From a virus (lineage: Duplodnaviria; Heunggongvirae; Uroviricota; Caudoviricetes), in IMG/VR virus record IMGVR_UViG_3300029653_000080: a DNA stretch of 22,386 nt; one strand, given 5' to 3'. A program made the translations under genes and the position numbers. Under the pieces are notes generated by a model. That model was not told the DNA's origin and did no database searches. It saw only the letters and a list, made by a program, of their open reading frames with translations. Positions 2,322-21,182 of the stretch are shown one piece after another (position 1 is the stretch's first letter; the number at the start of each line of letters is the position of its first letter).

Positions 2322-5300
2322 ATGACCACTGTGAATAAAAAGTTAAAAAAAACTGCATCTGGCGCGATTACATGGTCGGTAATTGTTACCCAGATATTAT
2401 CTCCAGTTTCTCTTTCTTTGATCCCAGCAAACAGTTTTGCATCATCTGGTAATAAAGATGTTACGCAAACTTATGCCAGCGATGAGCATGCAAATAAAGT
2501 GGCCTCATTTGCAGCAAGTGCAGGTCAGAGCCTGGCGAATAATAATGCAAGTAGTTTTGCTGTAAATACTTTATCAACTCAGGGGACAAAAGAGGTCGTC
2601 GACTGGTTGCAACAATATGGCAATGCGCGCATCAAGCTTAATGTCGATGATTCTTTTTCCTTGAAGGATTCATCATTCGACTTTTTATATCCATGGCTGG
2701 ATACTCAGGATTATGTGTTATTCAGTCAGACATCACTACATCGTACTGATGACCGAAATCAGACCAATATTGGTTTGGGGATTCGTCATTTCACTCCTGA
2801 TAACGCAATGTTGGGTGCGAATGTTTTTTATGATTACGATTTAAGTCGCAGTCACTCTCGTGCAGGTTTTGGGGTTGAGTACTGGAGGGATTATTTCAGG
2901 CTTGGTGTAAATACCTATTTTGGTCTATCTGACTGGAAGAACAGTCGGGATATTGATGATTATCTGGAAAGACCTGCAAATGGCTGGGATTTTTCTGCTG
3001 AAGGATGGCTACCTGCTTATCCGCAATTAGGGGCATCTATTCAGTTTGAAAAATATTATGGTAAAAATGTCGGGTTATTTGGAAGCGATAACCTTCAGGA
3101 AAACCCTTACGCAGTTACTGGGGGAATTTCTTATACACCAGTTCCTCTGATTAAGTTTTCTGCACAGCATAAGCAAGGACAGAGCAACGTTCACGATACA
3201 ACCTTCGGTGTTGAGTTTAATTATCGCCCGGGCGTTTCCCTGGCTGAACAGCTTAGCAGCGATAATGTTGCAGTTATGCGAGAAGTCCAGAATCGGCGTT
3301 ATGATTTTGTTGAACGAAATAACAACATTGTTCTGGAGTACAAGAAGAAGCATGCACTGAAAATCAGTTTGCCAGAGTCTGTTCAGGGGGAGGGGGAATC
3401 AATCATCCCTGTAACACTGACAATCAACAATGCTAGTGGTGGTATCAAGTCTGTACAGTGGAATGATAGTGCATTCACTGCGGCTGGCGGCAAGATCAGT
3501 GGAAATGGCACATCATGGCAGATCACTTTACCGGCTTATAAAAGCGAAGGTGTAAATTCGTGGAATGTTGGAGCCACAGTCCAGGATAACAGAGGCAATG
3601 TTTCCAACTATGCCGTTATGAATATCAGCGTTAATAATAGTGGTGTCTCGACAGCGGATTCATCTTTTACGCTGGATGGGGATTCGTCTCCGACGATCTC
3701 TGCTGATGGTCAATCCACTTATCCAATAGTATTAAGCCTGAAAGACAGTAACGGTAAGGCATTAACCGGACTGGCTGATGACATTGAAATGTCTGTGGAA
3801 TTTACTGCGGATAGCAATAGTGCTCGACAGCGTGAAACGGTAACTGCTCCGTCATTAGGCGCGGTAGAGGAAATCTCTGCTGGTGTATATCGCTCTGTTC
3901 TGGCTGCTGGTTCGCAGGCTGGGACGGTACGTGTAACTGCAAAAGTTCAGGGAAAAACATTTACTCTCAGTATTAAGCAAACAGCAGCAACAGAACCTGA
4001 TTCTGAGGTCAGTGCTGTTTTAACCGCTGCACCAGCAGAACAGGTAGTTGGTTACAATATCAATCTACAACTGGCAGTGAAGGATTCACAAGGAAATGCA
4101 ATCACTGGTGATAACACTCTGAGCTTTTATGCTCTTAACCAGGCAGAAGGAGTCGAGTTTGGGACTGTAACGGAAAAAGACGGTGTCTATAGCGCGACAG
4201 TAACTTCAAAACGAGCTGGTAAGATTACTATCGGTGTTAAATCTGATAGTCATGATTTCTCAGGTGTTAAGAAAGAAATCACCTTTATTGAGGACCGGCA
4301 GCAGGTTACATTCTCTCAGTTTGAAGCCAGCCAAAATAATGCATTGGCTGATGGAAAACAGAGAAATATGGTAACTGTAAGCCTTGCGGACCGTTTCGGC
4401 AATGTTGTTCCTGGTTATGCTGTCACATTGTCTTTACCAGCAGGGATAACTCAAGTTGGTGGTGAACATGCTGTTTCAACTGACGAAAATGGTAATGCTA
4501 TTTTTGCGTTAATAAGCTCCACTCCGGGGTCTTACGTGATTACAGCTCATGCTGGTTCTCAGATGTCTACTGAGTTAACAGTGACCTTTGCATCAAATAT
4601 GACCGGAGCTTCACTGTCACTGACGCCTGAAAGCAGTAGTTTAATTTCCAATATTCCTGCTAATGGTAAGGATGCAGCGGTATTAGATGTGCAGCTGACA
4701 AATACGAATGCGTCGGTCAATGGGCAAAAGATTCAGCTCATCACCTCATCTGAAGGATTATCTGTACCAACAAATATCGTGACTGATTCAACAGGGCATG
4801 TTTCTGTTCCGCTTACAACGGTGAAAGCTGGTGAGTACACGGTGACTGCACGGGTGACTGACGGTTCCCATAGCGTGGAATCTGGCAGCGTTAAGTTAAC
4901 TTTTGTGCCCGATGTTGCTTCTGCAGAACTTACTATGAGTGTATCAAAACAGGAGATTGTGGCCGATGGCAGTGAAAACGCAACAGTAAACATTCAGTTG
5001 GTTGATGCGAATAACAATGCGTTTACAGGTGAGGTGGATTTAACGATTACACCATCGACGGGAGCATCATTGACCAGTAGTAATCTGCAACTGGATGCTC
5101 ATGGACAGGCAACAACGCAGTTCACTGCATCGAAATCAGGCCAGTACACAATTCAGGCCGAGTATGTTCTGGATGGGAAACGCATAACCGCAAGCCAGAA
5201 TATTGATGCCGTGACGGATGTGAAGGGGGCTGTGTTGGAGATCACATCATCTGCATCTTCGGCTGTAGTGAGCGATACCAACAATCTGGTATTTACGTTA

Positions 5301-5873
5301 CTGTTGAAAAGTAAGTCAGGCGAAGCATTAAGTGGTCGAGCATTGAATGTTAAGACATCTGGGCCGTCTAAATATGGTGCGTTGGTGGTTGATAAAACCA
5401 CAGTAACGACTGATGAGAACGGTCAGGCTACGGTAAGCGTACATGGTCGAACGGTTGGTTCGTATAAATTAACGGCGACCTTAAACGAACTTGGCAGTGA
5501 TGTTAGCGCGGTGAAATCATTCTCCCTGTACGCTGATGACGCAAATGGAGTATTGACTCTAACAAAAGATCCTGGTTATGAGACAAACGATGGCTCTCCA
5601 GTAGGTATTTATGCTCGATTTGTCGATCATTTTGGAAACCCATTATCTGGTACGGTTGAGTTTTCTGCTGGTAGTGAAGATAGTCCAGACTCTCAACGGG
5701 TCAAAATGGAGCCTGCTACAGTAACGTTACACTGGACAGGTAATGCAGCTTCGGAATTCAGCACCTATGAAAGTGGTTATCACTGGATTAAGGCCAAAAT
5801 AACGAATAGCAAAAATACATATGAGAAAACAATAAGGACTTATGTTGTAAAACTACCTGAAAAGGATAGTTAA
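2322..5873 (+). CDS. Inverse autotransporter (invasin/intimin-family, type Ve) adhesin with repeated bacterial Ig-like (Big_1-type) domains; no LysM domain
   Basis: Long N-terminal signal (…SLIPANSFA). The beta-barrel region (DWLQQYGNARIKLNVDDSFSLKDSSFDFLYPWLDTQDYVLFSQ...ERPANGWDFSAEGWLPAYPQLG...NPYAVTGGISYTPVPL...DFVERNNNIVLEYKKK) closely parallels the Yersinia invasin beta-domain. About 8 Ig-like repeats follow. AT-rich codon usage. Confidence 0.85.
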   Translation: MTTVNKKLKKTASGAITWSVIVTQILSPVSLSLIPANSFASSGNKDVTQTYASDEHANKVASFAASAGQSLANNNASSFAVNTLSTQGTKEVVDWLQQYGNARIKLNVDDSFSLKDSSFDFLYPWLDTQDYVLFSQTSLHRTDDRNQTNIGLGIRHFTPDNAMLGANVFYDYDLSRSHSRAGFGVEYWRDYFRLGVNTYFGLSDWKNSRDIDDYLERPANGWDFSAEGWLPAYPQLGASIQFEKYYGKNVGLFGSDNLQENPYAVTGGISYTPVPLIKFSAQHKQGQSNVHDTTFGVEFNYRPGVSLAEQLSSDNVAVMREVQNRRYDFVERNNNIVLEYKKKHALKISLPESVQGEGESIIPVTLTINNASGGIKSVQWNDSAFTAAGGKISGNGTSWQITLPAYKSEGVNSWNVGATVQDNRGNVSNYAVMNISVNNSGVSTADSSFTLDGDSSPTISADGQSTYPIVLSLKDSNGKALTGLADDIEMSVEFTADSNSARQRETVTAPSLGAVEEISAGVYRSVLAAGSQAGTVRVTAKVQGKTFTLSIKQTAATEPDSEVSAVLTAAPAEQVVGYNINLQLAVKDSQGNAITGDNTLSFYALNQAEGVEFGTVTEKDGVYSATVTSKRAGKITIGVKSDSHDFSGVKKEITFIEDRQQVTFSQFEASQNNALADGKQRNMVTVSLADRFGNVVPGYAVTLSLPAGITQVGGEHAVSTDENGNAIFALISSTPGSYVITAHAGSQMSTELTVTFASNMTGASLSLTPESSSLISNIPANGKDAAVLDVQLTNTNASVNGQKIQLITSSEGLSVPTNIVTDSTGHVSVPLTTVKAGEYTVTARVTDGSHSVESGSVKLTFVPDVASAELTMSVSKQEIVADGSENATVNIQLVDANNNAFTGEVDLTITPSTGASLTSSNLQLDAHGQATTQFTASKSGQYTIQAEYVLDGKRITASQNIDAVTDVKGAVLEITSSASSAVVSDTNNLVFTLLLKSKSGEALSGRALNVKTSGPSKYGALVVDKTTVTTDENGQATVSVHGRTVGSYKLTATLNELGSDVSAVKSFSLYADDANGVLTLTKDPGYETNDGSPVGIYARFVDHFGNPLSGTVEFSAGSEDSPDSQRVKMEPATVTLHWTGNAASEFSTYESGYHWIKAKITNSKNTYEKTIRTYVVKLPEKDS

Positions 5874-5885
5874 CAAAATTGAATG

Positions 5886-5912
5886 GGGAGGGCTTAGCCC
5901 TCCCTCTTTTTA
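5886..5912. terminator. Bidirectional intrinsic terminator between the convergent adhesin and esterase genes
   Basis: Perfect 8-bp GC-rich stem gggagggc-tta-gccctccc followed by tcttttt on the plus strand; A-rich on the other side gives a U-rich tract for the minus strand. Confidence 0.7.
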
Positions 5913-6953
5913 CAGGTTAGCGTTTGGGTTTTGTTGTTGGGGAGCTGTTTTTATAGGCGCTCCCAGGTTTTTAGTAAACCACTCAACGACTCTGTTTATA
6001 ATAATTGGCTGATACCATGTCTTATCGCCATGCTCGGCCCCTTCTACCAGCACGTACTCAGCGTTATCGCCGTTCTTCTTCAACATCCTGAATAGTTTGG
6101 CGCTTTGCTCAGGTGAAACCAGAGTGTCTTTGCTACCATGCATAATAAGAAATGGGGGTTTTACTCCTTTCATATGTCCGATTGGACTGGCGTTTAGCGC
6201 TTTTTCTTTTGACGCTGTGATGGGGGCTCCCGCAAAATTTCTGAATGCAGGGCCATTGATCATTAAGGCTTCGGTTACGGCAGGAGAGCGATGAACCTCC
6301 TGCACTGATTCAGGGAACCCCTCGCCAATATTCAACAAGTCAGAAATCCCATAAAGTGTGGCAACTGCCTGAACATCTGAGGATTGCTGAAGAAAGTCAC
6401 CTTTATCAAAGGTTTTGTCACCATTTGTAGTTCCCATCATCTGAGCAAGCCATCCACCGGCAGAGTCACCCAGAACTCCGATTCTTTGAGGATCAATCCC
6501 ATAATTGCTGGCATGCTCTCTCAGGTAACGTATTGCAGCTTTTCCATCCTCAACTGGTGCTGGAAATGTATCAGGAATTGTTCTGTATTCTACAGCGGCC
6601 ACAACAAAACCAGCTTCTGCCAGAGCCATTCTCATTTCAATAAATTTGTCATGTTCAGAAGACATGAATCCGCCGCCGGGATAATAAATAATGGCTGGTT
6701 TTAAATCATTTGTTCGCGGGACAAGAACTGACATGTGAAGCTGTCTGACAGAACGAGTTCCTTTTATCTGGGAATAAACAACATCACCAATGAGATCGAC
6801 TTGGTTTCTGGTCGGTGAAACACTAATGATATCTGCACCCGGGGTGTAACCAGGAAGATTAGTCTGGACAGGTGTTGCACAACTCCCGACCGACATGGCC
6901 ATTGACATACCATACAATAGTGTTGCAGATGATAATATCTTGTTAATTTTCAT
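5910..6953 (-). CDS. Secreted (probably lipoprotein) alpha/beta-hydrolase-fold esterase/lipase, HSL-like (Abhydrolase_3) family
   Basis: Signal peptide MKINKILSSATLLYGMSMAMSVGSC (possible lipobox), oxyanion-hole motif YYPGGGF, nucleophile elbow GDSAGG, C-terminal EGAEHGD histidine. Confidence 0.8.
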   Translation of the reverse strand: MKINKILSSATLLYGMSMAMSVGSCATPVQTNLPGYTPGADIISVSPTRNQVDLIGDVVYSQIKGTRSVRQLHMSVLVPRTNDLKPAIIYYPGGGFMSSEHDKFIEMRMALAEAGFVVAAVEYRTIPDTFPAPVEDGKAAIRYLREHASNYGIDPQRIGVLGDSAGGWLAQMMGTTNGDKTFDKGDFLQQSSDVQAVATLYGISDLLNIGEGFPESVQEVHRSPAVTEALMINGPAFRNFAGAPITASKEKALNASPIGHMKGVKPPFLIMHGSKDTLVSPEQSAKLFRMLKKNGDNAEYVLVEGAEHGDKTWYQPIIINRVVEWFTKNLGAPIKTAPQQQNPNANL

Positions 6954-7400
6954 GTTTTACATGCCTTGACTTATCGGATGAAATTCTCTTACTGAATTTA
7001 ACGGCAGTTTAATAGCCGTACAACTCGTGGTAGCCAGGGAAATATCCCAGTCGTGGTTAAGGTTGTACTTGACGGCTATTATTTCAACAATGCTTAAAGT
7101 GAGAGCTTAAGGTTATGCGTATGTTTTACAGTCCGAGTAGATTCTGACCAATAGCTTCTTTGTATAATTCTGTCAGAAATAAATCTTGGCTTGCATGAAG
7201 TTTGAGACCTTATCTTGTTTGATTATGAATAATCAATTCGCCATAATTGTATCACCGGAGCCTGAACAACTCCGGTGACTTCTGCGCTAAACGGGGACGT
7301 TTATGCGCACACACAATCCAAACTCTCTTCTCCCTTCACAGATGCAGAAATGCACCTGCGTTTTTTTGCATCCAGCGTCTGACCTCTGTGGAGGTGAAGC

Positions 7401-9462: not shown

Positions 9463-10545
9463 TTAGAACTGATAAACCAGACCTACAGCGACGATGTCGT
9501 CGGTATCAATACCAGCTGTTTTGGTAAACTTACTATCGTCAATTAAGTTGATTTTGTAATCAACAAAAGTGGACATGTTTTTATTAAAGTAGTAAGTAGC
9601 ACCGACATCGACATACTTGACTAAGTCTCGGTCACCATGAACACCAAGGTCTTTACCTTTTGACTGAAGGTAAGCAACAGATGGTCGCAGACCGAAGTCA
9701 AACTGATATTGTGCTACTGCTTCAAAGTTTTGTGCTTTGTTTGCAATATGGTTATTACCAAAAACGGTCATATTCTGAGTTTCAGAATATGTGGTAGCCA
9801 GATAGATATTGTTCGCATCATATTTCAGGCCTGCAGCCCATACTTCCGCATTTTTGCCGGAGGCATTGAATTTGCTCTTACCATAGGCGACCTGACCGTC
9901 AGTGCGATCTGATTTAGCATAGGTTGCACCCACGCCGAATCCTTCATACTCATAAGTAGTGGAGAAACCGAAACCATCACCATTGGCTTCAGTTACGTCA
10001 GTGCGGTCATTTTTACCCTGATACTGAGCAGCAAAGTTCAGGCCATCGACCAGACCAAAGAAGTCGTTGTTACGATAAGTTGCAACACCAGTAGTGCGAC
10101 CAGTCATGAACACATCTGTTTGGGTCCAGGTATCACCACCGAATTCTGGCAGGACGTCAGTCCACGCACCGATGTCGTATGCTACACCGTAGTTACGGCC
10201 GTAATCGATTGAGCCGTAATCACCAAATTTCAGGCCTGCAAATGCAAGACGGGTTTTGTCTTTGGAAGAACCTTGAGATTCAGCACGGTTGCCTTTGAAT
10301 TCATATTCCCACTGACCGAAACCAGTCAGTTGATCGTTGATTTGGGTTTCACCTTTGAAGCCAAGACGGGCATAAGTAGTATCACCATCATCTGCATCAT
10401 TAGAGGAGAAGTAGTGCTTGGCATTAACTTTCCCGTATAGATCCAGCTTGTTACTGTCTTTATTATAAATTTCAGCTGCCTGAGCAGACATCGCCATCAG
10501 TACTGATGCAGCTACAGCAGAAATTGCCACTGTTAATTTTTTCAT
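9463..10545 (-). CDS. nmpC: Outer-membrane general porin, OmpC/OmpF/NmpC family, apparently intact
   Basis: 360-aa ORF with signal peptide [23 protein letters not shown] and C-terminal ...VAVGLVYQF; matches E. coli NmpC as recalled, at the same Q-to-holin position as in DLP12. Confidence 0.9.
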
Positions 10546-11134: not shown

Positions 11135-11350
11135 ATGAAATCCATGGATAAGTTAACAACGGGTGTCGCCTATGGCACCTCAGCAGGTAGTGCCGGGTAC
11201 TGGTTTTTACAGTTGCTCGATAAAGTCACGCCCTCACAGTGGGCGGCAATAGGTGTGCTGGGTAGTCTGGTATTTGGCTTGCTGACGTATCTGACAAACC
11301 TTTATTTCAAGATTAAAGAAGATAAGCGTAAGGCTGCGAGAGGTGAATAA
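11135..11350 (+). CDS. S: Class II pinholin, S21 type
   Basis: 71-aa [74 protein letters not shown], closely matching phage 21 S; stop overlaps the next ATG (TAATG). Confidence 0.9.
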
Positions 11351-14300
11351 TGTCGCCATCATTACGCAAGGCTATTGCTGCTGCTATTGGTGGTGGGGCT
11401 GTTGCCATAGCGTCTGTGCTCATCACTGGTCCGAGTGGTGACGATGGCCTGGAAGGTGTCAGCTACATACCATACAAAGATATTGTTGGTGTATGGACTG
11501 TATGTCACGGGCATACAGGAAAAGACATCATGCTCGGTAAAACGTATAAAGGCAGCAGTAAGGGGCATACCCCGCGCGAAGCGAAGGACAACCTGAAATC
11601 CACGCAGTTACTGAGTGTGATCGATGCCATCAGCGAAGGGCCGATTGAAGGTCCGGTGGATGGGTTAAAAAGCGTGCTACTGAACAGTACGCCGGTGCTG
11701 GACACTGAGGGGAATACCAATATCTCCGGTGTCACGGTGGTGTTCCGGGCAGGTGAGCAGGAGCAGACTCCGCCGGAGGGGTTTGAATCCTCCGGCTCCG
11801 AGACGGTGCTGGGTACGGAAGTGAAATACGACACGCCGATCACCCGCACCATCACGTCGGCAAACATCGACCGTCTGCGTTTTACCTTCGGTGTGCAGGC
11901 ACTGGTGGAAACCACTTCAAAGGGTGACCGGAATCCGTCGGAAGTTCGCCTGCTGGTTCAGATACAGCGTAACGGTGGCTGGGTGACGGAAAAAGACATC
12001 ACCATTAAGGGCAAAACCACCTCGCAGTATCTGGCCTCGGTGGTGGTGGATAACCTGCCTCCGCGCCCGTTCAATATCCGGATGCGCAGGATGACACCGG
12101 ACAGCACCACAGACCAGCTGCAGAACAAAACGCTCTGGTCGTCATACACCGAAATCATCGATATGAAACAGTGCTACCCGAACACGGCACTGGTCGGTGT
12201 GCAGGTGGACTCGGAGCAGTTCGGCAGTCAGCAGGTGAGTCGTAATTATCATCTGCGCGGGCGCATTCTGCAGGTGCCGTCGAACTATAACCCGCAGACG
12301 CGACAATACAGCGGTATCTGGGACGGAACGTTAAAACCGGCATACAGCAACAACATGGCCTGGTGTCTGTGGGATATGCTGACCCATCCGCGCTACGGCA
12401 TGGGGAAACGTCTTGGTGCGGCGGATGTGGACAAATGGGCGCTGTATGTCATCGGCCAGAATTGCGACCAGTCGGTGCCGGATGGTTTTGGTGGCACGGA
12501 GCCGCGCATCACCTGTAATGCCTGGCTGACCACACAGCGTAAGGCGTGGGATGTTCTCAGTGATTTCTGCTCGGCGATGCGCTGTATGCCGGTATGGAAC
12601 GGGCAGACGCTGACGTTCGTGCAGGACCGGCCGTCGGATAAGGTGTGGACCTATAACCGCAGTAATGTGGTGATGCCGGATGATGGCGCGCCGTTCCGCT
12701 ACAGTTTCAGCGCCCTGAAGGACCGCCATAATGCCGTTGAGGTGAACTGGATTGACCCGGATAACGGCTGGGAGACGGCGACAGAGCTTGTGGAGGACAC
12801 GCAGGCCATTGCCCGTTACGGTCGTAACGTCACGAAGATGGATGCCTTTGGCTGTACCAGTCGGGGGCAGGCACACCGAGCCGGGCTGTGGCTGATTAAA
12901 ACGGAACTGCTGGAAACGCAGACCGTGGATTTCAGCGTGGGCGCAGAAGGGCTTCGCCATGTGCCGGGCGATGTTATTGAAATCTGCGATGATGACTATG
13001 CGGGTATCAGCATCGGCGGGCGCGTGCTGGCGGTGAACAGCCAGACCCGGACGCTGACGCTCGACCGTGAAATCACTCTGCCATCCTCCGGTACCACGCT
13101 GATAAGCCTGGTTGACGGAAGCGGCAATCCGGTCAGCGTGGAGGTCCAGTCCGTCACCGACGGCGTGAAGGTAAAAGTGAGCCGGGTTCCTGACGGCGTT
13201 GCCGGATACAGCGTGTGGGGGCTGAAGTTGCCGACGTTGCGCCAGCGCCTGTTCCGCTGCGTGAGTATCCGTGAGAACGATGACGGCACGTATGCCATCA
13301 CTGCCGTGCAGCATGTACCGGAAAAAGAGGCCATCGTGGATAACGGGGCGCACTTTGACGGCGACCAGAGCGGCACGGTGAATGGTGTCACGCCGCCAGC
13401 GGTGCAGCACCTGACTGCCGAAGTCACCGCAGACAGCGGGGAATATCAGGTGCTGGCGCGCTGGGACACGCCGAAGGTGGTGAAGGGGGTGAGCTTTATG
13501 CTTCGCCTGACCGTGGCAGCGGATGACGGCAGTGAGCGGCTGGTCAGCACGGCCCGGACGACGGAAACCACATACCGCTTCACGCAACTGGCGCTGGGGC
13601 GGTACACGCTGACAGTCCGGGCGGTAAATGCGTGGGGGCAGCAGGGCGATCCGGCGTCGGTATCGTTCCGGATTGCCGCACCGGCAGCACCGTCGAGGAT
13701 TGATCTGACGCCGGGCTATTTTCAGATAACCGCCACGCCGCATCTTGCCGTTTATGACCCGACGGTACAGTTTGAATTCTGGTTCTCGGAAAAGCGGATT
13801 ACCGATATCAGGCAGGTTGAAACCACAGCCCGCTATCTTGGCACGGCGCTGTACTGGATAGCTGCCAGTATCAATATTAAGCCGGGCCATGATTATTATT
13901 TTTATATCCGCAGTGTGAATACTGTTGGCAAATCGGCATTCGTGGAGGCTGTCGGTCAGGCGAGCGATGATGCTTCCGGCTATCTGGATTTTTTCAAAGG
14001 CCAGATAACTGAATCCCATCTCGGCAAGGAGCTGCTGGAAAAAGTCGAGCTGACGGAGGATAACGCCAGCAAACTGGAGGAGTTTTCGAAAGAGTGGAAA
14101 GACGCCAACGATAAATGGAATGCCATGTGGGGCGTCAAAATTGAGCAGACCGAAGACGGCAGGCATTATGTCGCGGGTATTGGCCTCAGCATGGAGGATA
14201 CGGAGGAAGGCAAACTGAGCCAGTTCCTGGTTGCCGCTAACCGTATCGCGTTTATTGACCCGGCAAACGGGAATGAAACGCCGATGTTTGTGGCGCAGGG

Positions 14301-14940
14301 CAACCAGATATTCATGAACGAAGTGTTCCTGAAGTATCTGACGGCTCCCACCATTACCAGCGGCGGCAATCCGCCGGTATTTTCCCTGACACCGGACGGG
14401 CGGTTGACGGCGAAAAATGCCGATATCAGCGGTAACGTGAATGCGAACTCAGGGACGCTCAATAATGTCACGATTAACCAGAACTGTCGGATTCTGGGAA
14501 AACTGTCTGCCAACCAGATTGAAGGTGATATTGTCAAAACGGTGGGAAAAGCCTTTCCGAGAAATGGCAGTTATGCCAGCGGTACAATAACGGTCACTGT
14601 GTACGATGACCAGGCTTTTGACCGTCAGATAGTAATCCCACCCGTTCTGTTTCGCGGTGGTAAGCATGAAAACTTCAACAGCAACAACCAACAGTCATAC
14701 TGGTATTCAACCTGTAAGCTGCAGGTACTGAAGAACGGACAGGAAATCTTTCAGCAACCCGCGACGGATGTCAGCAGGGTATTTTCATCCGTCATTGATA
14801 TGCCAGCGGGACACGGCCATGTCACCCTGACTTTCAATGTTTCTTCATATGGTGCAAATAACTGGACGCCAACGACCAGTATCAGCGACCTTCTTGTTGT
14901 CGTGATGAAGAAATCAACAGCCGGTATCAGTATCAGTTGA
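11350..14940 (+). CDS. Chimeric ORF: N-terminal 66 codons of a SAR endolysin (R21 type, signal-anchor-release domain) fused in frame to codon 3 onward of a lambda-type tail-tip host-specificity protein J; C-terminal about 150 aa of J diverge from lambda
   Basis: Residues 1-66 [66 protein letters not shown] match the R21 SAR endolysin N-terminus. From [36 protein letters not shown]... the sequence is near-identical to lambda J from residue 3. Junction at about nt 11547. Confidence 0.85.
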
Positions 14941-14998
14941 ATTTTATAACCCAAATACGGGCGCCAGAAATGGCGCCTTTTTTATTTGTGGAGTGAAT

Positions 14999-17060
14999 AT
15001 GGCAGTACAGATTTCAGGCGTGCTGAAAGACGGTGCAGGAAAACCAATACAGAACTGTACTATTCAGCTCAAAGCAAAGCGTAACAGCACCACGGTACTG
15101 GTGAACACGGTGGCCTCTGAAAATCCGGATGAAGCCGGGCGTTACAGCATNNNNNNNNNNNNNNNNNNNNNNNNNNNNNNNNNNNNNNNNNNNNNNNNNN
15201 NCGCCTTCACATGCCGGGACCATTACCGTCTATGAAGGTTCCAGACCAGGTACGCTGAATGATTTTCTCGGTGCCATGACGGAAGATGATGTCATGCCGG
15301 AGGCATTGCGTCGTTTTGAGGTAATGGTGGAGGATGTGGCACGCAACGCTGAAGCCGCCTCTCAGAGCGCAGCGGCAGCAAAGAAATCAGAAACAGCAGC
15401 GGCATCGTCCAGGAACGCGGCGAAAACATCAGAGACGAATGCAGGTAACAGCGCGAAAGCGGCAGCTTCTTCAAAAACAGCCGCACAAAACGCAGCAACA
15501 GCGGCAGAACGTTCAGAGACAAATGCCCGTGCGTCAGAAGAAGCCTCCGCAGACAGTGAAGAGGCTTCCCGCCGTAATGCAGAGTCAGCCGCTGAAAATG
15601 CCGGAGTCGCCACCACAAAAGCGCGGGAGGCTGCAGCAGACGCAACAAAGGCCGGGCAGAAAAAGGATGAGGCTCTGTCGGCAGCGACACGAGCTGAAAA
15701 GGCGGCAGACCGCGCAGAAGCCGCAGCGGAAGTGACTGCAGAGCCCTATGCGAATATAGTGCCGCCGCTGCCTGATGTGTGGATACCGTTTAACGATTCA
15801 CTGGATATGATTGCGGGTTTTTCTCCGGGCTATAAAAAAATAGCTATTGGTGACGATGTGGTTCAGGTCGCCAGTGATAAACAGGTTAATTTCAGTCGCG
15901 CATCAACGGCAACATATATCAACAAATCTGGCGAACTGAAAACGGCGGAAATTAATGAGCCGCGATTTGAGTGTGATGGCCTGCTTATTGAGGGACAAAG
16001 AACGAACTACATGCTCAATTCGGAAAGTCCAGCCAGCTGGGGGAAGTCATCAAACATGGATGTGCCCGAAACCGGGACGGATAGTTTTGGTTTTACTTAT
16101 GGAAAGTTTGTCTGCAACGATTCTCTGGTTGGGCAAACTTCGGCTATTAATATGGCATCAATTGCTGCAACAAAGTCAGTTGATGTCTCAGGCGATAACA
16201 AGTACGTGACAACCTCATGCCGTTTTAAAACAGAACGACAGGTAAGGTTACGTATACGGTTTGATAAGTATGATGGTAGTGCAACAACTTTTCTTGGCGA
16301 TGCGTACATTGATACGCAAACGCTTGAAATTAATATGACAGGTGGTGCTGCCGGCAGAATTACGGCACGAGTCAGGAAGGATAAGACCACGGGCTGGATT
16401 TTTGCAGAGGCAACGATTCAGGCAATTGATGGTGAGTTAAAAATAGGCTCTCAGATACAGTATTCTCCTGAGCAGGGTGGGGCAACAGTATCTGGTGACT
16501 ATATTTATCTTGCCACCCCACAAGTAGAGAATGGGCCGTGTGTATCATCATTTATTATTTCAGGAGGCAGCGCAACGACAAGAGCCAGTGATTTGGTTAG
16601 TATCCCCACCAGAAATAATCTTTATAAGTTACCATTTACTTTTTTACTTGAGATTCATAAAAACTGGGATATTGCACCAAACGCCGCACCCCGCGTGTGG
16701 GATATAGCAGCAGCCAATACCGGGCAATCAGCAATTGCAGCAATCAACAGAGGTAGTGGTAAGTTATATATGAGTCTGTCAAACCCTTCAGGCTCGTATG
16801 TTAATAGCGCAGCGACAGATGTATTTGCAGAGAAAACCACATTTGGATGTATTGCAAAAGCTGATGGTCACTTTCATGTGGTGACAAATGGTAAAGCGGT
16901 TAATGAAGTTTATTGTGAATATAATGGCGTGACCGCTGATAAAAATATCCGATTTGGAGGGCAGACGAATACTGGAGAACGACATCTGTTTGGCCATATT
17001 CGCAATTTCCGCATATGGCATAAAGAATTAAATGACAGGCAATTAAAAGAGGTCGTATGA
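14999..17060 (+). CDS. stf: Side tail fibre protein (Stf-like): lambda-Stf-type N-terminus, Ala-rich central repeats, lectin-like (LamG / concanavalin-type) C-terminal region; interrupted by an assembly gap
   Basis: N-terminus MAVQISGVLKDGAGKPIQNCTIQLKAKRNSTTVLVNTVASENPDEAGRYS...PSHAGTITVYEGSRPGTLNDFL parallels lambda Stf. C-terminus ends ...NIRFGGQTNTGERHLFGHIRNFRIWHKELNDRQLKEVV, the typical end of Laminin_G_3-type domains. A 51-N run breaks the frame; track ORFs 14993..15235 and 15129..17060 are the two parts. Confidence 0.8.
15151..15201. other. Assembly gap / masked bases (51 N) inside stf
   Basis: Run of n characters. Flanking codons match lambda Stf on both sides with about 17 codons missing, and the N count is not frame-preserving, so the length is a placeholder. 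Confidence 0.95.
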
Positions 17061-17335
17061 AAGATTTAACTTTGAAGTTTCATGACAAACTGCAGTTTAA
17101 GGCCTTCCTGTCATCTCTTGGCTGGGCGGAAGATGAAGACCTCCAGAATAAACTGTTAGTTGATGAAATTGGTTTCACCTACACAGAAACAGGGGTAACA
17201 GAAGAGGGAGAACCTGTCTGTATCCGGAATGATGGTTATTTTGTCAACATTCGCATTCTTGATGACTTGTTTGATGTTTCTGTATTCTCTGATTATGTCG
17301 TGGAGCTGGAAACACCGCTTCGGGAATGGAGCTGA
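17057..17335 (+). CDS. Hypothetical acidic 92-aa protein translationally coupled to stf (tail-fibre accessory candidate); not Tfa-like
   Basis: ATG overlaps the stf stop (ATGA); RBS AAGAGG upstream. Sequence MKDLTLKFHDKLQFKAFLSSLGWAEDEDLQNKLLVDEIGFTYTETGVTEEGEPVCIRNDGYF... has no signal peptide and no family I recognise. Confidence 0.55.
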   Translation: MKDLTLKFHDKLQFKAFLSSLGWAEDEDLQNKLLVDEIGFTYTETGVTEEGEPVCIRNDGYFVNIRILDDLFDVSVFSDYVVELETPLREWS

Positions 17336-17347
17336 AAGGAGGAAATA

Positions 17348-17788
17348 ATGGATATAAGCCCCTTACTTCATGCACTTTGTGCTGTGGCTGCGCAGATACT
17401 GGTTGGTCTTTTTACCGGAAACTGGGCTTACGGAGCGATAGCCGGTTGTACGTTCTTCATTGCGCGTGAACATACCCAGGCAGAATATCGCTGGATTGAA
17501 ATGTTCGGGCATGGCAAGCGAATGAATATGCCGTGGTGGGGCGGTTTTGATCCGCGTGCTTGGGATGTGGCAAGCCTGATGGATTTTGCTGTGCCGGTGG
17601 TGGCGTGTCTGCTGGTCTGGCTGTTGGTTAATCGTGGGCGAAAAAAGGTGAGCTGTATATGCAACGGAGGAAGAAACCCCGTTGCTGGAAGCCAGGAAAA
17701 AGTATCGGGTGTTGCTGTCCTCGGATGTTGTGCTAATTGGGTGATAACAGATCCTGTGTATGGGAGTTTCCCTTTTTGCGTGCGTTGA
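17348..17788 (+). CDS. Hypothetical inner-membrane protein (about 3 predicted TM helices); the C-terminal about 45 codons are doubtful and overlap the sitD 3' end
   Basis: Strong RBS AAGGAGG 6 nt before the ATG. Hydrophobic segments LLHALCAVAAQILVGLFTG, WAYGAIAGCTFFIA, ASLMDFAVPVVACLLVWLLV, then a basic NRGRKK; the Cys-rich tail overlaps convergent sitD. Confidence 0.5.
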   Translation: MDISPLLHALCAVAAQILVGLFTGNWAYGAIAGCTFFIAREHTQAEYRWIEMFGHGKRMNMPWWGGFDPRAWDVASLMDFAVPVVACLLVWLLVNRGRKKVSCICNGGRNPVAGSQEKVSGVAVLGCCANWVITDPVYGSFPFCVR

Positions 17789-18590
17789 TGCTGGTAACGG
17801 CAAACGTCATGATGAACAAAACCGCGAATAAGACGACAATCGTCGGAGCTGGTGCGCTGTCGATAAAAAAGGACAACCAGACACCAGTCATTGACACTAT
17901 TACCGATATGCCAGTCGCCAGTAGGAGCGCAATATGAAAGCGTTGTGTCAGGAGTACCGCAATGGCGCCAGGCGCAATGAGCAGAGAAATGGAGAGAATG
18001 ATACCTACCGCTTTCAGCGTCGCCACAATGGTCAGAGAGACCATGCACAGCAGCCCATAATGCAGCCATCTCGTATGCAAACCGCTTACCTGCGCCTGTT
18101 GATAATCAAAGCTGAACAGCAAAAAATCCCGCCATTTTACGCTAATAACAAGTGTAACCAGCCCGGCAATAATCATCGTCTGGATTATATCGCCGATGGT
18201 TATCCCGAGCATGTCGCCGAAAAGAATATGGTCAAGATGTACGTCTGGTTTGACTGCAATATACAAAATCAGACCTGCGGCAAACATGCCAGAAAAAACA
18301 ATCCCCATCACTGTATCTTGCTTGATTCGGCTGTTGTCTTTCAGGTATCCCGTCGCCACCGCGCAGAATACTCCGGCGACGAATGCCCCTGTAGCCAAAG
18401 GTAACCCCAGAATCCAGGCAAGCACGATGCCAGGAAAAACCGCATGACTCATCGTGTCACCCATCAGTGCCCAGCCTTTCAGGACCAGAAAGACCGACAG
18501 CAGCGCACAGGGTATGGAAACTACCAGTGAAATCAGCAGTGCGTGACTCATAAAGGTGAACTGCAGTGGCTCCAGTAATAATGCCATCAT
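17733..18590 (-). CDS. sitD: Mn/Fe ABC transporter permease SitD
   Basis: 285-aa polytopic permease; last gene of the four-gene minus-strand operon, start overlapping the sitC stop. Confidence 0.9.
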   Translation of the reverse strand: MMALLLEPLQFTFMSHALLISLVVSIPCALLSVFLVLKGWALMGDTMSHAVFPGIVLAWILGLPLATGAFVAGVFCAVATGYLKDNSRIKQDTVMGIVFSGMFAAGLILYIAVKPDVHLDHILFGDMLGITIGDIIQTMIIAGLVTLVISVKWRDFLLFSFDYQQAQVSGLHTRWLHYGLLCMVSLTIVATLKAVGIILSISLLIAPGAIAVLLTQRFHIALLLATGISVIVSMTGVWLSFFIDSAPAPTIVVLFAVLFIMTFAVTSINARKKGNSHTQDLLSPN

Positions 18591-19444
18591 GAGCGATCCT
18601 CCAGCGCCTTATGCGCACGCCGACGATTTGCCAAAAGCCCATGGGTGGGCGCAAAGACAAATGCTAAAAGAAACAGCAGTGTCTGCGCCACCACGATGAT
18701 TCCACCTGTCGCGCCGTCCAGAAAGTAACTGACCCACGCGCCGAGGAAACTGGTTACACTGCCAATAGTTACAGCAATCATGAGCAGGCGGGGAAAACGA
18801 TCGGTTAACAACCATGCTGTTGCTCCGGGAGTCACCACCAGACAGATCACCAGAAAGGCACCAACCGTTTGCAGCGCCGCAACGGTCGAAACCGACAGCA
18901 GGGTGAAGAAGAGGAGTTTTAATCTGCCCGGATGCAATCCAATAGCACGGGCGTGATTCTCGTCGAAAAAGGTCACCATAAGATCTTTCCATTTGAAAAA
19001 AAGCACGATGATCGAGAGAATGCCAATGATAGTGAGTTGCAGGATATCCGCCGGATCGATTGCCAGAATATTGCCCAGGACGATGGTCTGAATGTTCACA
19101 GATGTCGGGTTCAATGACACCATAAACAGCCCCAGGCCAAAAAAGGACGAGAAGATCAGGCCGATGATGGCATCTTCTTTTAAGCGGGTGCGTTGGTTAA
19201 GAAACAGCATGCTGCCCGCAGCCAGTCCGCCGGAAAAGAAGGCTCCCAGAGAAAACGGAAGCCCCAGCATATATGCCCCCGCAACACCCGGGACAATAGA
19301 GTGCGACAACGCATCGCCAATCAGCGACCAGCCTTTTAGCATCAGATAGCATGACAGGAAAGCGCAGAGACCGCCGACCATCGCCGAGACCCACATCGCA
19401 TTGAGCATATATTCATAGCTGAAGGGTTCCAGTAGCACGTTCAT
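18587..19444 (-). CDS. sitC: Mn/Fe ABC transporter permease SitC
   Basis: 285-aa permease paralogous to SitD; start and stop overlap neighbours by 4 nt. Confidence 0.9.
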
Positions 19445-20268
19445 CTTTCTTCCCTCTGCACCGCTGACGGTCGATGAGCCACAAAAGGGCGTTCATCGTC
19501 AGTAATAATGCTTTCTTCCGAGCCGTTAAGTGTGACATGGCGCAGTACGCCGCTAAAAGCCAGCTCCAGGTTCTCGGCTGTAAAAGTGGTGTCTGTCGGC
19601 CCGCTTGCCAGGACGGTGCCTTTGACCATGACCGTATAATCGCAAAATGTCGTGACGGATCCGAGATTGTGCGTTGAGACAAGCATCGTTTTGCCTTCCG
19701 CGCGTAACTCCCTCAACAGGCTGATGATTTTGGCTTCGGTTTTCACATCAACGCCAGTAAAAGGTTCATCCAGCAGGATCACATCACCCTGCTGTGCAAT
19801 CGCTCTCGCCAGAAAGACGCGTTTCTTTTGTCCACCGGAAAGCTCGCCGATTTGTCGATGGCGAAAATTCACCATATCGACACGTTCCAGCGCATCGGTG
19901 ACAATTTGACGATCCCTCTTTTTGGCGATACGCAACATACCCATATGCCCATAGCGGCCCATCATCACCACATCTTCCACCAGTACAGGAAATGACCAGT
20001 CAACCTCTTCTGACTGAGGGACGTAGGCAACCAGGTTTTTCTGTAACGCCTGTCGCGTGGGAATACCCAGAACAGATATCTTTCCGCTGGTCAGACGCAC
20101 AAATCCCATAATCGCTTTAAACAACGTCGATTTTCCGGAACCGTTTACCCCAACCAGAGCGGCAATAGATCCACTTGGTACTGTGAAGGATGCATCGCGC
20201 AGTGCTGTGTGCCCGTTACGCCAGGTGACAGCAACATCATTAACGACAATGCCTGCAGATTGCATCAT
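19441..20268 (-). CDS. sitB: Mn/Fe ABC transporter ATP-binding protein SitB
   Basis: Walker [13 protein letters not shown] signature LSGGQKKR, Walker B ILLDEP. Confidence 0.92.
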
Positions 20269-21182
20269 TATTTCTCCCTTTTCCCGGCTTTAATTCCCTG
20301 TACCAGCGTACTGGTAGTAACCTTAAGAAGGTCGATATACGTCGGTACCGGGCCGTTTTCTGTGCTCAGGGAATCGACATAGAGCACACCGCCGTAGTGT
20401 GCGCCGGTTTCACGCGCAACCTGACGCGCTGGTTTATCGGAAATCGTACTCTCGCTAAAGACTGCCGGGATATGATTTTTCTTAACTATATCAACAACCT
20501 TACGTACCTGCTGCGGTGTTCCTTGTTGATCGGCATTAATCGGCCACAGATAAAGCTCTTTTAGCCCCAAATCGCGTGCGAGATAAGAAAAAGCCCCTTC
20601 ACTGGTGACCATCCATCGCTGATTCTCAGGGAGTTCCGTAATCTGCTTACGCAGGGGGGCAAGGGTTTGGGTAATCTTGGCTTTATAAGTATCGGCATTG
20701 CGTTGGTAGGTTTGTGCATTTGCCGGATCGTATTTTATCAACGCATCACGAATATTATCGACGTAAATCAGAGCATTATCTGGCGACATCCATGCATGGG
20801 GGTTAGGTTTGCCCTCATAGGGTCCTTCGGTGATCCCTACAGGCGTCACACCCGAAGAGACAATTACTTCTGGAACCCCATTGAGATGCTGGTAAAAGCG
20901 TTGGAACCACAATTCCAGATTCATACCATTGGCGAGAATCAGTTGTGCCCCCTGCGCACGTTTAATATCGCCAGGGGTAGGCTGATACTCATGAATTTCT
21001 GCACCAGGCTTGGTTATGGATGAGACTTCTGCAGCATCTCCCGCCACGTTTTTGGCCATATCCGCGATGATGGTAAATGTTGTAATGACCTTAAATTTTT
21101 CAGTTGCACTTGCCTGAAATGCGATCGAGCAGGTGAGTGCGAGGCCCCCCAAGAGCATGGTTACTTTTTTTATTGAGCGCAT
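20268..21182 (-). CDS. sitA: Periplasmic metal-binding protein SitA (cluster A-I substrate-binding protein)
   Basis: 304 aa with signal peptide [26 protein letters not shown]; first gene of the operon. Confidence 0.9.

Follow-up and report, generated by a model that had tools for sequence, protein, structure and literature searches.

The window analysed here is a 22,386-nucleotide stretch (IMG/VR record IMGVR_UViG_3300029653_000080), which represents a defective lambdoid prophage of Escherichia coli. It carries the gene stf, encoding a side tail fibre (Stf), located downstream of the tail-tip gene J and followed by a short gene for an acidic protein of 92 amino acids (aa). The translated Stf consists of (i) a lambda-type N-terminal domain, (ii) an Ala-rich shaft, (iii) a conserved neck and (iv) two tandem beta-sandwich domains, which are placed by sequence profiles and structural models in the concanavalin A (ConA)-like class. 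The positions of these features are presented in Table 1; the aa numbering is that of the intact 686-aa Stf of an identical genome.

Table 1. Features of the stf locus and their positions in the window.
Feature	Position	Strand	Basis and remarks
Tail-tip gene J, fused to endolysin N-terminus	11350..14940	+	Pfam J domains; Phage_lysozyme at aa 34-83
Terminator-like hairpin and T-run	14959..14988	+	GGGCGCC-AGAAAT-GGCGCCT; consensus match only; between J and stf
Side tail fibre gene stf	14999..17060	+	Open reading frame listing, PHROG 1419; interrupted by N run in the window, 686 aa in identical genomes
N run, 51 N standing for 50 real bases	15151..15201		Apparent frameshift between the stf halves
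Lambda-type Stf N-terminal domain, aa 1-95	14999..15284	+	PF08400; 9e7m/9mgh; lambda orf-401
Ala-rich shaft, aa 100-255	15297..15764	+	34% Ala; repeated alignment to Ala-rich region of lambda
Neck, aa 256-338	15765..16013	+	Best-conserved segment of the family; low confidence in monomer model
First beta-sandwich domain (ConA-like class), aa 339-512	16014..16535	+	Core of 'GTA head spike fiber' domain
Second beta-sandwich domain, LamG/Laminin_G_3-like, aa 513-686	16536..17057	+	PF13385; AlphaFold2 model; Foldseek
92-aa acidic companion (pI 4.2)	17057..17335	+	Start overlaps stf stop (ATGA); PHROG 1361, E 3e-42

Reading frame of stf and domains of its product

The stf open reading frame (ORF) starts with an ATG 58 bases after the J stop codon and terminates with a TGA at positions 17058-17060. 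In the window its two halves are found in different frames (14993/14999..15235 and 15129..17060 in the ORF listing). Outside the N run, the 3-kb stretch between positions 14900 and 17900 is 100% identical to many complete E. coli chromosomes, e.g. NZ_CP030111, that of an isolate from cerebrospinal fluid. The N run aligns there with 50 bases and the ORF is continuous, comprising 687 codons (686 aa). The frame break seen in the window thus stems from the length of the N run, in which 51 N replace 50 bases; for the identical genomes, the continuous ORF rules out that stf is a frameshifted pseudogene. This confirms that the stf ORF is genuine and intact in these genomes. An identity of at least 99% to the 3-kb stretch is found in 83 records, and at least 80% of it is present in 450 of 5,426 complete RefSeq E. 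coli genomes.

The Prokaryotic Genome Annotation Pipeline (PGAP) divides the gene of NZ_CP030111 into two parts: an 'incomplete' N-terminal pseudogene (15100-15463 of the extracted locus, L001) and a separate 417-aa coding sequence (15907-17160), which begins at an internal start codon and is named 'phage head spike fiber domain-containing protein'. They correspond to window positions 14999-15363 and 15807-17060, respectively. Neither a stop codon nor a frameshift is present between the two parts, and the split appears to be an annotation artefact resulting from two differing family models.

The N-terminal half of Stf is closely related to that of phage lambda. Pfam family PF08400 was matched with scores of 85.8 and 93 bits (cut-off 26.6) on the two halves of the domain (aa 1-50 and the stretch past the gap). 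Residues 1-94 align at the sequence level with the lambda Stf N-domain of known structure (PDB 9e7m/9mgh; E-value 6.7e-49), and residues 1-158 share 73% identity with lambda orf-401; the E-values place these matches far above chance expectation. The location of the gene, just downstream of J in the lambdoid late region, is also that of a lambda-type stf. The Ala-rich shaft that follows the N-domain presumably forms a trimeric coiled coil.

The distal half is not lambda-like: aa 256-686 showed no detectable similarity to the C-terminus of lambda orf-401 or to orf-314. Its first segment, the neck, has a mean pairwise identity of 0.80 among 35 family representatives, and is 73-79% identical even to the necks of T5-like fibres, in which the identity of the remaining domains is about 30%. 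In the AlphaFold2 (AF2) monomer model, the predicted local distance difference test (pLDDT) scores of the neck are only 31-49.

The C-terminal portion of the neck, together with the first sandwich domain, matches the fibre that decorates the head of the Rhodobacter capsulatus gene transfer agent (RcGTA). NCBIfam model NF048003 was aligned to aa 329-529 over its positions 1-181 of 182 (55.7 bits; cut-off 36), and a phmmer comparison with the RcGTA protein Rcc01080 gave an E-value of 1.4e-9 over aa 297-543. The AF2 model of the first sandwich domain is confident (pLDDT 71-95). This domain, which occupies the middle of the distal half, is the most variable part of the family, with a mean identity of 0.59 among the same 35 representatives.

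The second sandwich domain resembles Laminin_G_3 (PF13385), which was matched at aa 560-681 with 25.1-25.7 bits (E 1.4-2.2e-5), slightly short of the gathering score (27.6). The same family was matched at E <= 0.01 by 16 of the 35 representatives, and the end of the Laminin_G_3 profile aligns with LFGHIRNFRIWHKELNDRQL, a motif of the C-terminal strand. For the core of the domain, at least five discrete allele types can be distinguished (minimum identity 0.19 among the representatives), which are placed between conserved flanks. Modelled alone, the domain reached moderate confidence (pLDDT 62; predicted template modelling score, pTM, 0.63). In Foldseek searches this model retrieved the Hc-N sub-domains of botulinum toxins and pentraxins over approximately 157 columns, with E-values from 3.7e-6 to 1e-4 and query template modelling scores (TMq) of 0.5-0.6.

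The models of both sandwich domains match the folds of LamG, pentraxin, galectin and botulinum-toxin Hc-N, i.e. a two-sheet jelly roll that can be superposed on those of laminin G (LG) domains, pentraxins and galectins. The predicted structures thus support the assignment of both distal domains to the ConA-like/LamG jelly-roll fold class, within which the sequence identity to these four groups of proteins is only 8-20%. The deep-database searches yielded mostly relatives that were 40-100% identical to the query, and the AF2 alignments therefore consisted of only 22-35 moderately diverse rows; model confidence remained low for the neck and parts of the last domain. Among the PDB entries, Rcc01080 was the only relative of the distal half recognized by sequence, and a profile search of the PDB with the last domain gave nothing else; in the deposited structures of Rcc01080 only residues 2-10 are resolved.

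An earlier note on this DNA, made from the sequence alone, had described the N-terminal 100 or so residues and the Ala-rich centre of the fibre as lambda Stf-like, and its distal part as LamG/concanavalin-like. The matches to PF08400, 9e7m and orf-401 and the Ala content bear out the first description, and the Laminin_G_3 matches of the window Stf and of 16 representatives bear out the second, which applies to two tandem domains. The note was also right in holding that the distal half is not gp37-like, and it missed the closest homology of this half, i.e. that to the RcGTA domain (NF048003/Rcc01080).

Companion gene, distribution and domain exchange

The gene directly downstream of stf encodes the 92-aa companion protein. 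A homologous ORF of 88-110 aa, overlapping or abutting the fibre gene at its 3' end, is present at every fetched locus with a complete fibre gene. The identity to the window companion is 100% in phage mEp460_4F5 (mEp460), 90% in Lambda_4B5, 54% in Tritos, 51% in VSe12, 50% in VogelGryff, 50% in Bas32, 42% in the rV5-like phage naswa and 28% in AKFV33 (E 1e-12). A tblastn search with the companion identified 147 phage records, and all of the matches that were sampled (40/40) adjoin a fibre gene. The two genes are translationally coupled in lambdoid phages, Dhillonvirus, Seuratvirus, T5-like and rV5-like phages. We did not find the companion in Rhodobacter phages or the gene transfer agent, whose fibre homologue also lacks the second sandwich domain.

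The 92-aa ORF matched no Pfam or NCBIfam family at E <= 0.1 and gave no BLASTP match to lambda Tfa at E <= 10. None of the ORFs downstream of stf had a Pfam or NCBIfam match, and the combination of a gp37-like tip with Tfa was not found at this locus. The companion family is represented by 54 clusters among 1.84 billion. Its members are small stand-alone proteins, with the exception of one weak eukaryotic match. This sole long match, a repeat-boosted one to a eukaryotic Ig-repeat protein, was considered as a possible 'Rosetta stone' fusion and rejected; we regard it as due to chance or, at best, as pointing to a beta-rich fold.

In Lambda_4B5 the companion is 90% identical to that of the window, beside sandwich domains that are 28% and 43% identical. 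The companion therefore does not track the presumed receptor-contacting parts of the fibre. If it binds the fibre, these identities suggest that it should contact conserved parts, i.e. the neck or the flanks of the domains. From its position and co-occurrence, there is about an even chance that the companion represents a class of fibre partner (an assembly chaperone or a structural adaptor) that is specific to fibres composed of the neck, the GTA-spike domain and the LamG-like domain, and that replaces Tfa.

The fibre type itself is widely distributed. PHROG 1419 ('tail protein') was matched with an E-value of 0 and 1113 bits; positions 299-793 of the profile, which has 793, align with aa 194-686. 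A tblastn search with aa 250-686 identified 228 phage records, including (i) mEp460_4F5 (99.8% identity), (ii) PhiR57_1 and 3W (99%), (iii) Dhillonvirus phages, (iv) the Seuratvirus VogelGryff (Bas25), (v) many T5-like phages (VSe12, AKFV33, SP15 and others), (vi) rV5-like myoviruses and, distantly, (vii) Rhodobacter phage RcapMu. More than 2,500 matching proteins were found in a large protein collection. The distal module is located behind several different anchors: PF08400, PF12571, PF03406, the N-terminus of the T5 Ltf protein and a 1479-aa fibre of the rV5 type.

Records labelled as 'Campylobacter phage' (C13 and C14; 87-100 kb) and 'Listeria phage' (LM 4-14-1 and LM 4-11-1; fragments of 7.5 and 1.8 kb) also carry the fibre and the companion. 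These records are probably mislabelled or contaminated.

The domains of the fibre differ in their degree of conservation among related phages. The identity between the fibre of Tritos and the window Stf amounts to 99% for the N-domain, 94% for the middle domain and 46% for the last domain. The corresponding values for Lambda_4B5 are 94-97% for the N-domain and shaft, 28% for the middle domain and 43% for the last domain. As judged from these alignments, exchange among phages affects the middle domain and the last domain independently of each other. The combination of variable sandwich domains with a conserved neck is the pattern that would be expected of receptor-contacting modules under diversifying exchange.

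The fibre was compared with four known systems. Like the lambda Stf (orf-401/orf-314), which acts with Tfa, it is encoded after J and has a PF08400 N-domain and an Ala-rich shaft; unlike lambda, which has a gp37-like tip, Tfa and lom, the window has the neck, two ConA-like domains and an unrelated 92-aa companion. The fibres of mEp460_4F5 (accession no. LR595868), PhiR57_1, 3W and D2 are virtually the same as the window Stf, with an identity of 98.5% over 686 aa and of 99.8% for the distal part. These phages share with the window the companion, identical at all 92 aa, and a 97-aa gene located downstream of it. They differ in being complete, plaque-forming phage genomes, whereas the window stf is part of a prophage remnant, beside sitABCD.

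The homology to Rcc01080 (GhsB) of RcGTA and to gp58 of RcapMu (29% identity for gp58; blastp E 2.5e-12) extends over aa 271-544, i.e. the C-terminal portion of the neck and the first sandwich domain. Unlike the window Stf, the RcGTA fibre is a 325-aa head decoration, which is a single chain held on a pentameric base by an N-terminal Ile/Leu-Gly repeat (PMC7296036); it has neither the Stf N-domain nor the shaft nor the second, LamG-like domain. The Ile/Leu-Gly repeat of the head decoration is missing from the translated window Stf. Judged by these features, the window Stf shares a domain with the GTA head-spike fibre but not its role.

Gp22 of the T5-like phage Bas32 (IrisVonRoten) is 46% identical to the window Stf over aa 127-686 and is followed by the same companion gene. 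A figure legend in PMC11990801 mentions a C-terminal 'galectin-like domain' of Gp22 as a possible extra receptor-binding domain; apart from this mention, we found nothing on this fibre type in the coliphage literature. Gp22 differs from the window Stf in having an anchor of the T5 Ltf type, and Bas32 carries a second, T-shaped distal fibre (Gp24), for which no counterpart gene is present in the window or in mEp460. The LtfA and LtfB fibres of phage DT57C were considered as the closest T5-like model and rejected, as they end in a peptidase_S74 intramolecular chaperone and belong to a different family.

In view of this distribution, two further statements of the earlier note need to be revised. 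The note had reported that no Tfa gene is located downstream of stf; this holds for all of the Pfam, NCBIfam and BLASTP comparisons described above, but it does not mean that the fibre has no accessory gene, since a conserved 92-aa partner is encoded there and in at least four lineages. The note had also described the combination of a lambda-type N-terminus with a lectin-like distal region as a receptor-binding-domain swap. Such a swap is nothing peculiar to this genome: the same module is common and catalogued (PHROG 1419), and an isolated lambdoid phage has it with 99.8% identity. The stf gene of the window encodes an ordinary, already catalogued fibre type, given that the family is named (in NCBIfam, PHROG and RefSeq, and as a published homologue), that an isolated phage has a nearly identical fibre and that the prophage is dead.

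Setting of stf in the prophage

The prophage occupies the icd/e14 site and is flanked by a truncated isocitrate-dehydrogenase fragment, beyond which are located ymgL, ycgX and bluR. From left to right, it contains replication remnants, an inverse autotransporter gene, ybcN-ninE-rusA-quuD, an ompC-like porin gene, the holin gene essD, the 'J' ORF, stf, two small ORFs and sitDCBA on the opposite strand. The 'J' ORF is an in-frame fusion of 66 aa of the N-terminus of an endolysin with a region (aa 67-1195) that is 89% identical to aa 3-1131 of lambda J. The in-frame junction of the endolysin N-terminus with J indicates that a single deletion, extending from the lysis genes to the start of J, took out all of the head genes and most of the tail genes. 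As a result, the fibre cannot be built into a virion in this genome. The RefSeq product name of the fusion is plain gpJ.

J is the presumed attachment partner of Stf. The lom gene, located between J and stf in lambda, is absent from this place in the window. The terminator-like hairpin that separates the two genes would require late-operon antitermination for read-through into stf.

The series of stf, the 92-aa gene and the 97-aa gene is immediately followed by the sitABCD operon (17733-21182, minus strand). A matching gene order, including sitABCD, is present in the isolated lambdoid phages Lambda_4B5 and Lambda_4C10 (positions 4945-7269 of locus extract L011 and 4677-8126 of L012, respectively). 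This iron/manganese transporter operon is therefore a cargo of active temperate phages, and not only of the remnant. The ORF between the companion gene and sitABCD (17348-17788) encodes 146 aa, the first 97 of which are identical to the 97-aa protein of Lambda_4B5 and Lambda_4C10, a hydrophobic member of PHROG 1443 with no assigned function. The window ORF lacks a stop at this point and extends into the 3' end of sitD, which is encoded on the other strand; PGAP annotates it as incomplete. According to the RefSeq annotation of the identical genome, further cargo of the prophage comprises a gene for a 1183-aa inverse autotransporter (2322-5873) and the ompC-like porin gene (9463-10545).

Predicted function and alternative explanations

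It is probable that stf encodes a lambdoid side tail fibre whose lambda N-domain, Ala-rich shaft and neck carry two ConA-like domains engaged in lectin-type, reversible binding of surface glycans. The lambda-type N-domain would plug the fibre into the J-containing tail tip, and the Ala-rich coiled coil would extend it, so as to present two lectin-type sandwich domains per chain at its end. These domains may reversibly bind a surface polysaccharide (O-antigen, capsule or some other glycan), which would be the primary receptor; J would then engage its own receptor, an outer-membrane protein. Independent exchange of the middle and last domains would retune the specificity of the fibre. The translationally coupled 92-aa protein, encoded in the genomic place of Tfa, is most likely a partner in assembly or structure that acts on conserved regions of the fibre; it may aid folding or assembly, or may stay bound. 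The lateral fibres of T5-like phages and small siphoviruses are regarded as binders of O-antigen or other glycans (PMC8594841; PMC11990801), and two reports on RcGTA describe the binding of its head-spike fibre to capsular polysaccharide (PMC7296036; PMC10218006).

Several observations weigh against this interpretation. PGAP annotates the gene as a pseudogene fragment and a separate 417-aa coding sequence, and stf of this genome is unable to contribute to a virion. The model of the last domain is only moderately confident (pLDDT 62) and its Pfam match is under the gathering score. No sugar- or Ca2+-binding residues were identified; the loops of the models are too uncertain, and no residue-level comparison was made. 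ConA-like domains, e.g. LG domains, also bind proteins, and the receptor may thus be a protein. Finally, in several phages a second fibre gene is located after the companion gene, and the family may serve mainly as a proximal scaffold.

According to this last explanation, the neck and the distal domains, perhaps with the 92-aa protein, dock a second, receptor-binding fibre, a partner that has been lost here, and the lectin-like domains have an accessory role. A second fibre gene follows the companion gene in Bas32, AKFV33 and VogelGryff, and a 5'-truncated copy is present in VSe12. The N-terminal 70 or so residues of these second fibres are conserved (72-73% identity in the full-length proteins; 69% over the 29 aa kept by VSe12). 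The conserved segment NLSDLADRAAAWLNVRPIGSTPLAGDPVGDYDAATKRWVENK is present in the proteins of Bas32, AKFV33 and VogelGryff (positions 5289-7013 of locus extract L009, 5586-7259 of L006 and 5559-6725 of L004, respectively), whose distal parts differ, and this N-terminus is likely a common segment for docking to the proximal fibre. BLASTP revealed no N-terminal similarity between the second fibre of Tritos and the others. A role as a scaffold would also be in line with the neck being the best-conserved segment of the family, and PMC11990801 presents a model of Bas32 Gp24 on the 'proximal fiber' Gp22. However, two isolated lambdoid phages, mEp460_4F5 and Lambda_4B5, carry the fibre and companion genes without a second fibre gene; Lambda_4C10 also has the companion and lacks a second fibre gene, but its fibre gene is apparently interrupted by mobile elements. 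Moreover, variability and discrete allele types are found in the sandwich domains and not in the neck, as expected for receptor contact, and the GTA homologue binds the capsule unaided (PMC10218006). We therefore regard a mainly scaffolding function of the window Stf as unlikely.

It is rather improbable that stf is a functionless, decaying relic, i.e. a pseudogene of a dead prophage. The endolysin-J fusion, with which all of the head genes and most of the tail genes were lost, the PGAP call of an incomplete N-terminal pseudogene, the missing stop codon of the neighbouring 97-aa gene and the masking of the window's own bases under the N run are all compatible with decay. Against this, the 686 codons are uninterrupted in the identical genome and the PGAP split is not due to a stop codon or a frameshift. 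The 3-kb stretch is, in addition, maintained at an identity of at least 99% in 83 records and to at least 80% of its length in 450 complete genomes, and the distal part of Stf is 99.8% identical to the fibre of a working phage.

An enzymatic function of the distal domains, as a ConA-fold glycan hydrolase or lyase (depolymerase) of e.g. the GH16 or polysaccharide lyase type, is very improbable, since the Pfam and NCBIfam searches gave no match to a glycoside-hydrolase or lyase family, non-enzymatic lectin-type domains score equally or higher, and the family-invariant residues cluster in the neck and the inter-domain linker and do not form a catalytic motif such as ExDxxE within a sandwich domain.

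The intact gene may persist in the dead prophage as a reservoir module, available through recombination to incoming lambdoid phages. Its complete conservation and near-identity to the fibre of working phages fit such a role, and the acquisition of modules by infecting lambdoid phages through recombination with defective prophages has been shown in principle (PMC3945230).

The fibre type is widespread in prophages of extraintestinal pathogenic E. coli and in coliphages from the gut and from sewage that belong to several families. The range of smooth or encapsulated E. coli strains that is accessible to a phage is determined by its side and lateral tail fibres, and fibre swaps now serve to retarget lambda-based delivery particles. 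Three features of this otherwise ordinary fibre are worth keeping: (i) the homology to the GTA head spike, (ii) the two-domain, lectin-like tip, whose domains are exchanged independently, and (iii) the conserved 92-aa partner in the place of Tfa. For fibre engineering and host-range prediction, the useful unit would be a neck with two independently exchanged lectin-type domains and its own small partner gene, and transplants of this fibre should include the 92-aa gene.

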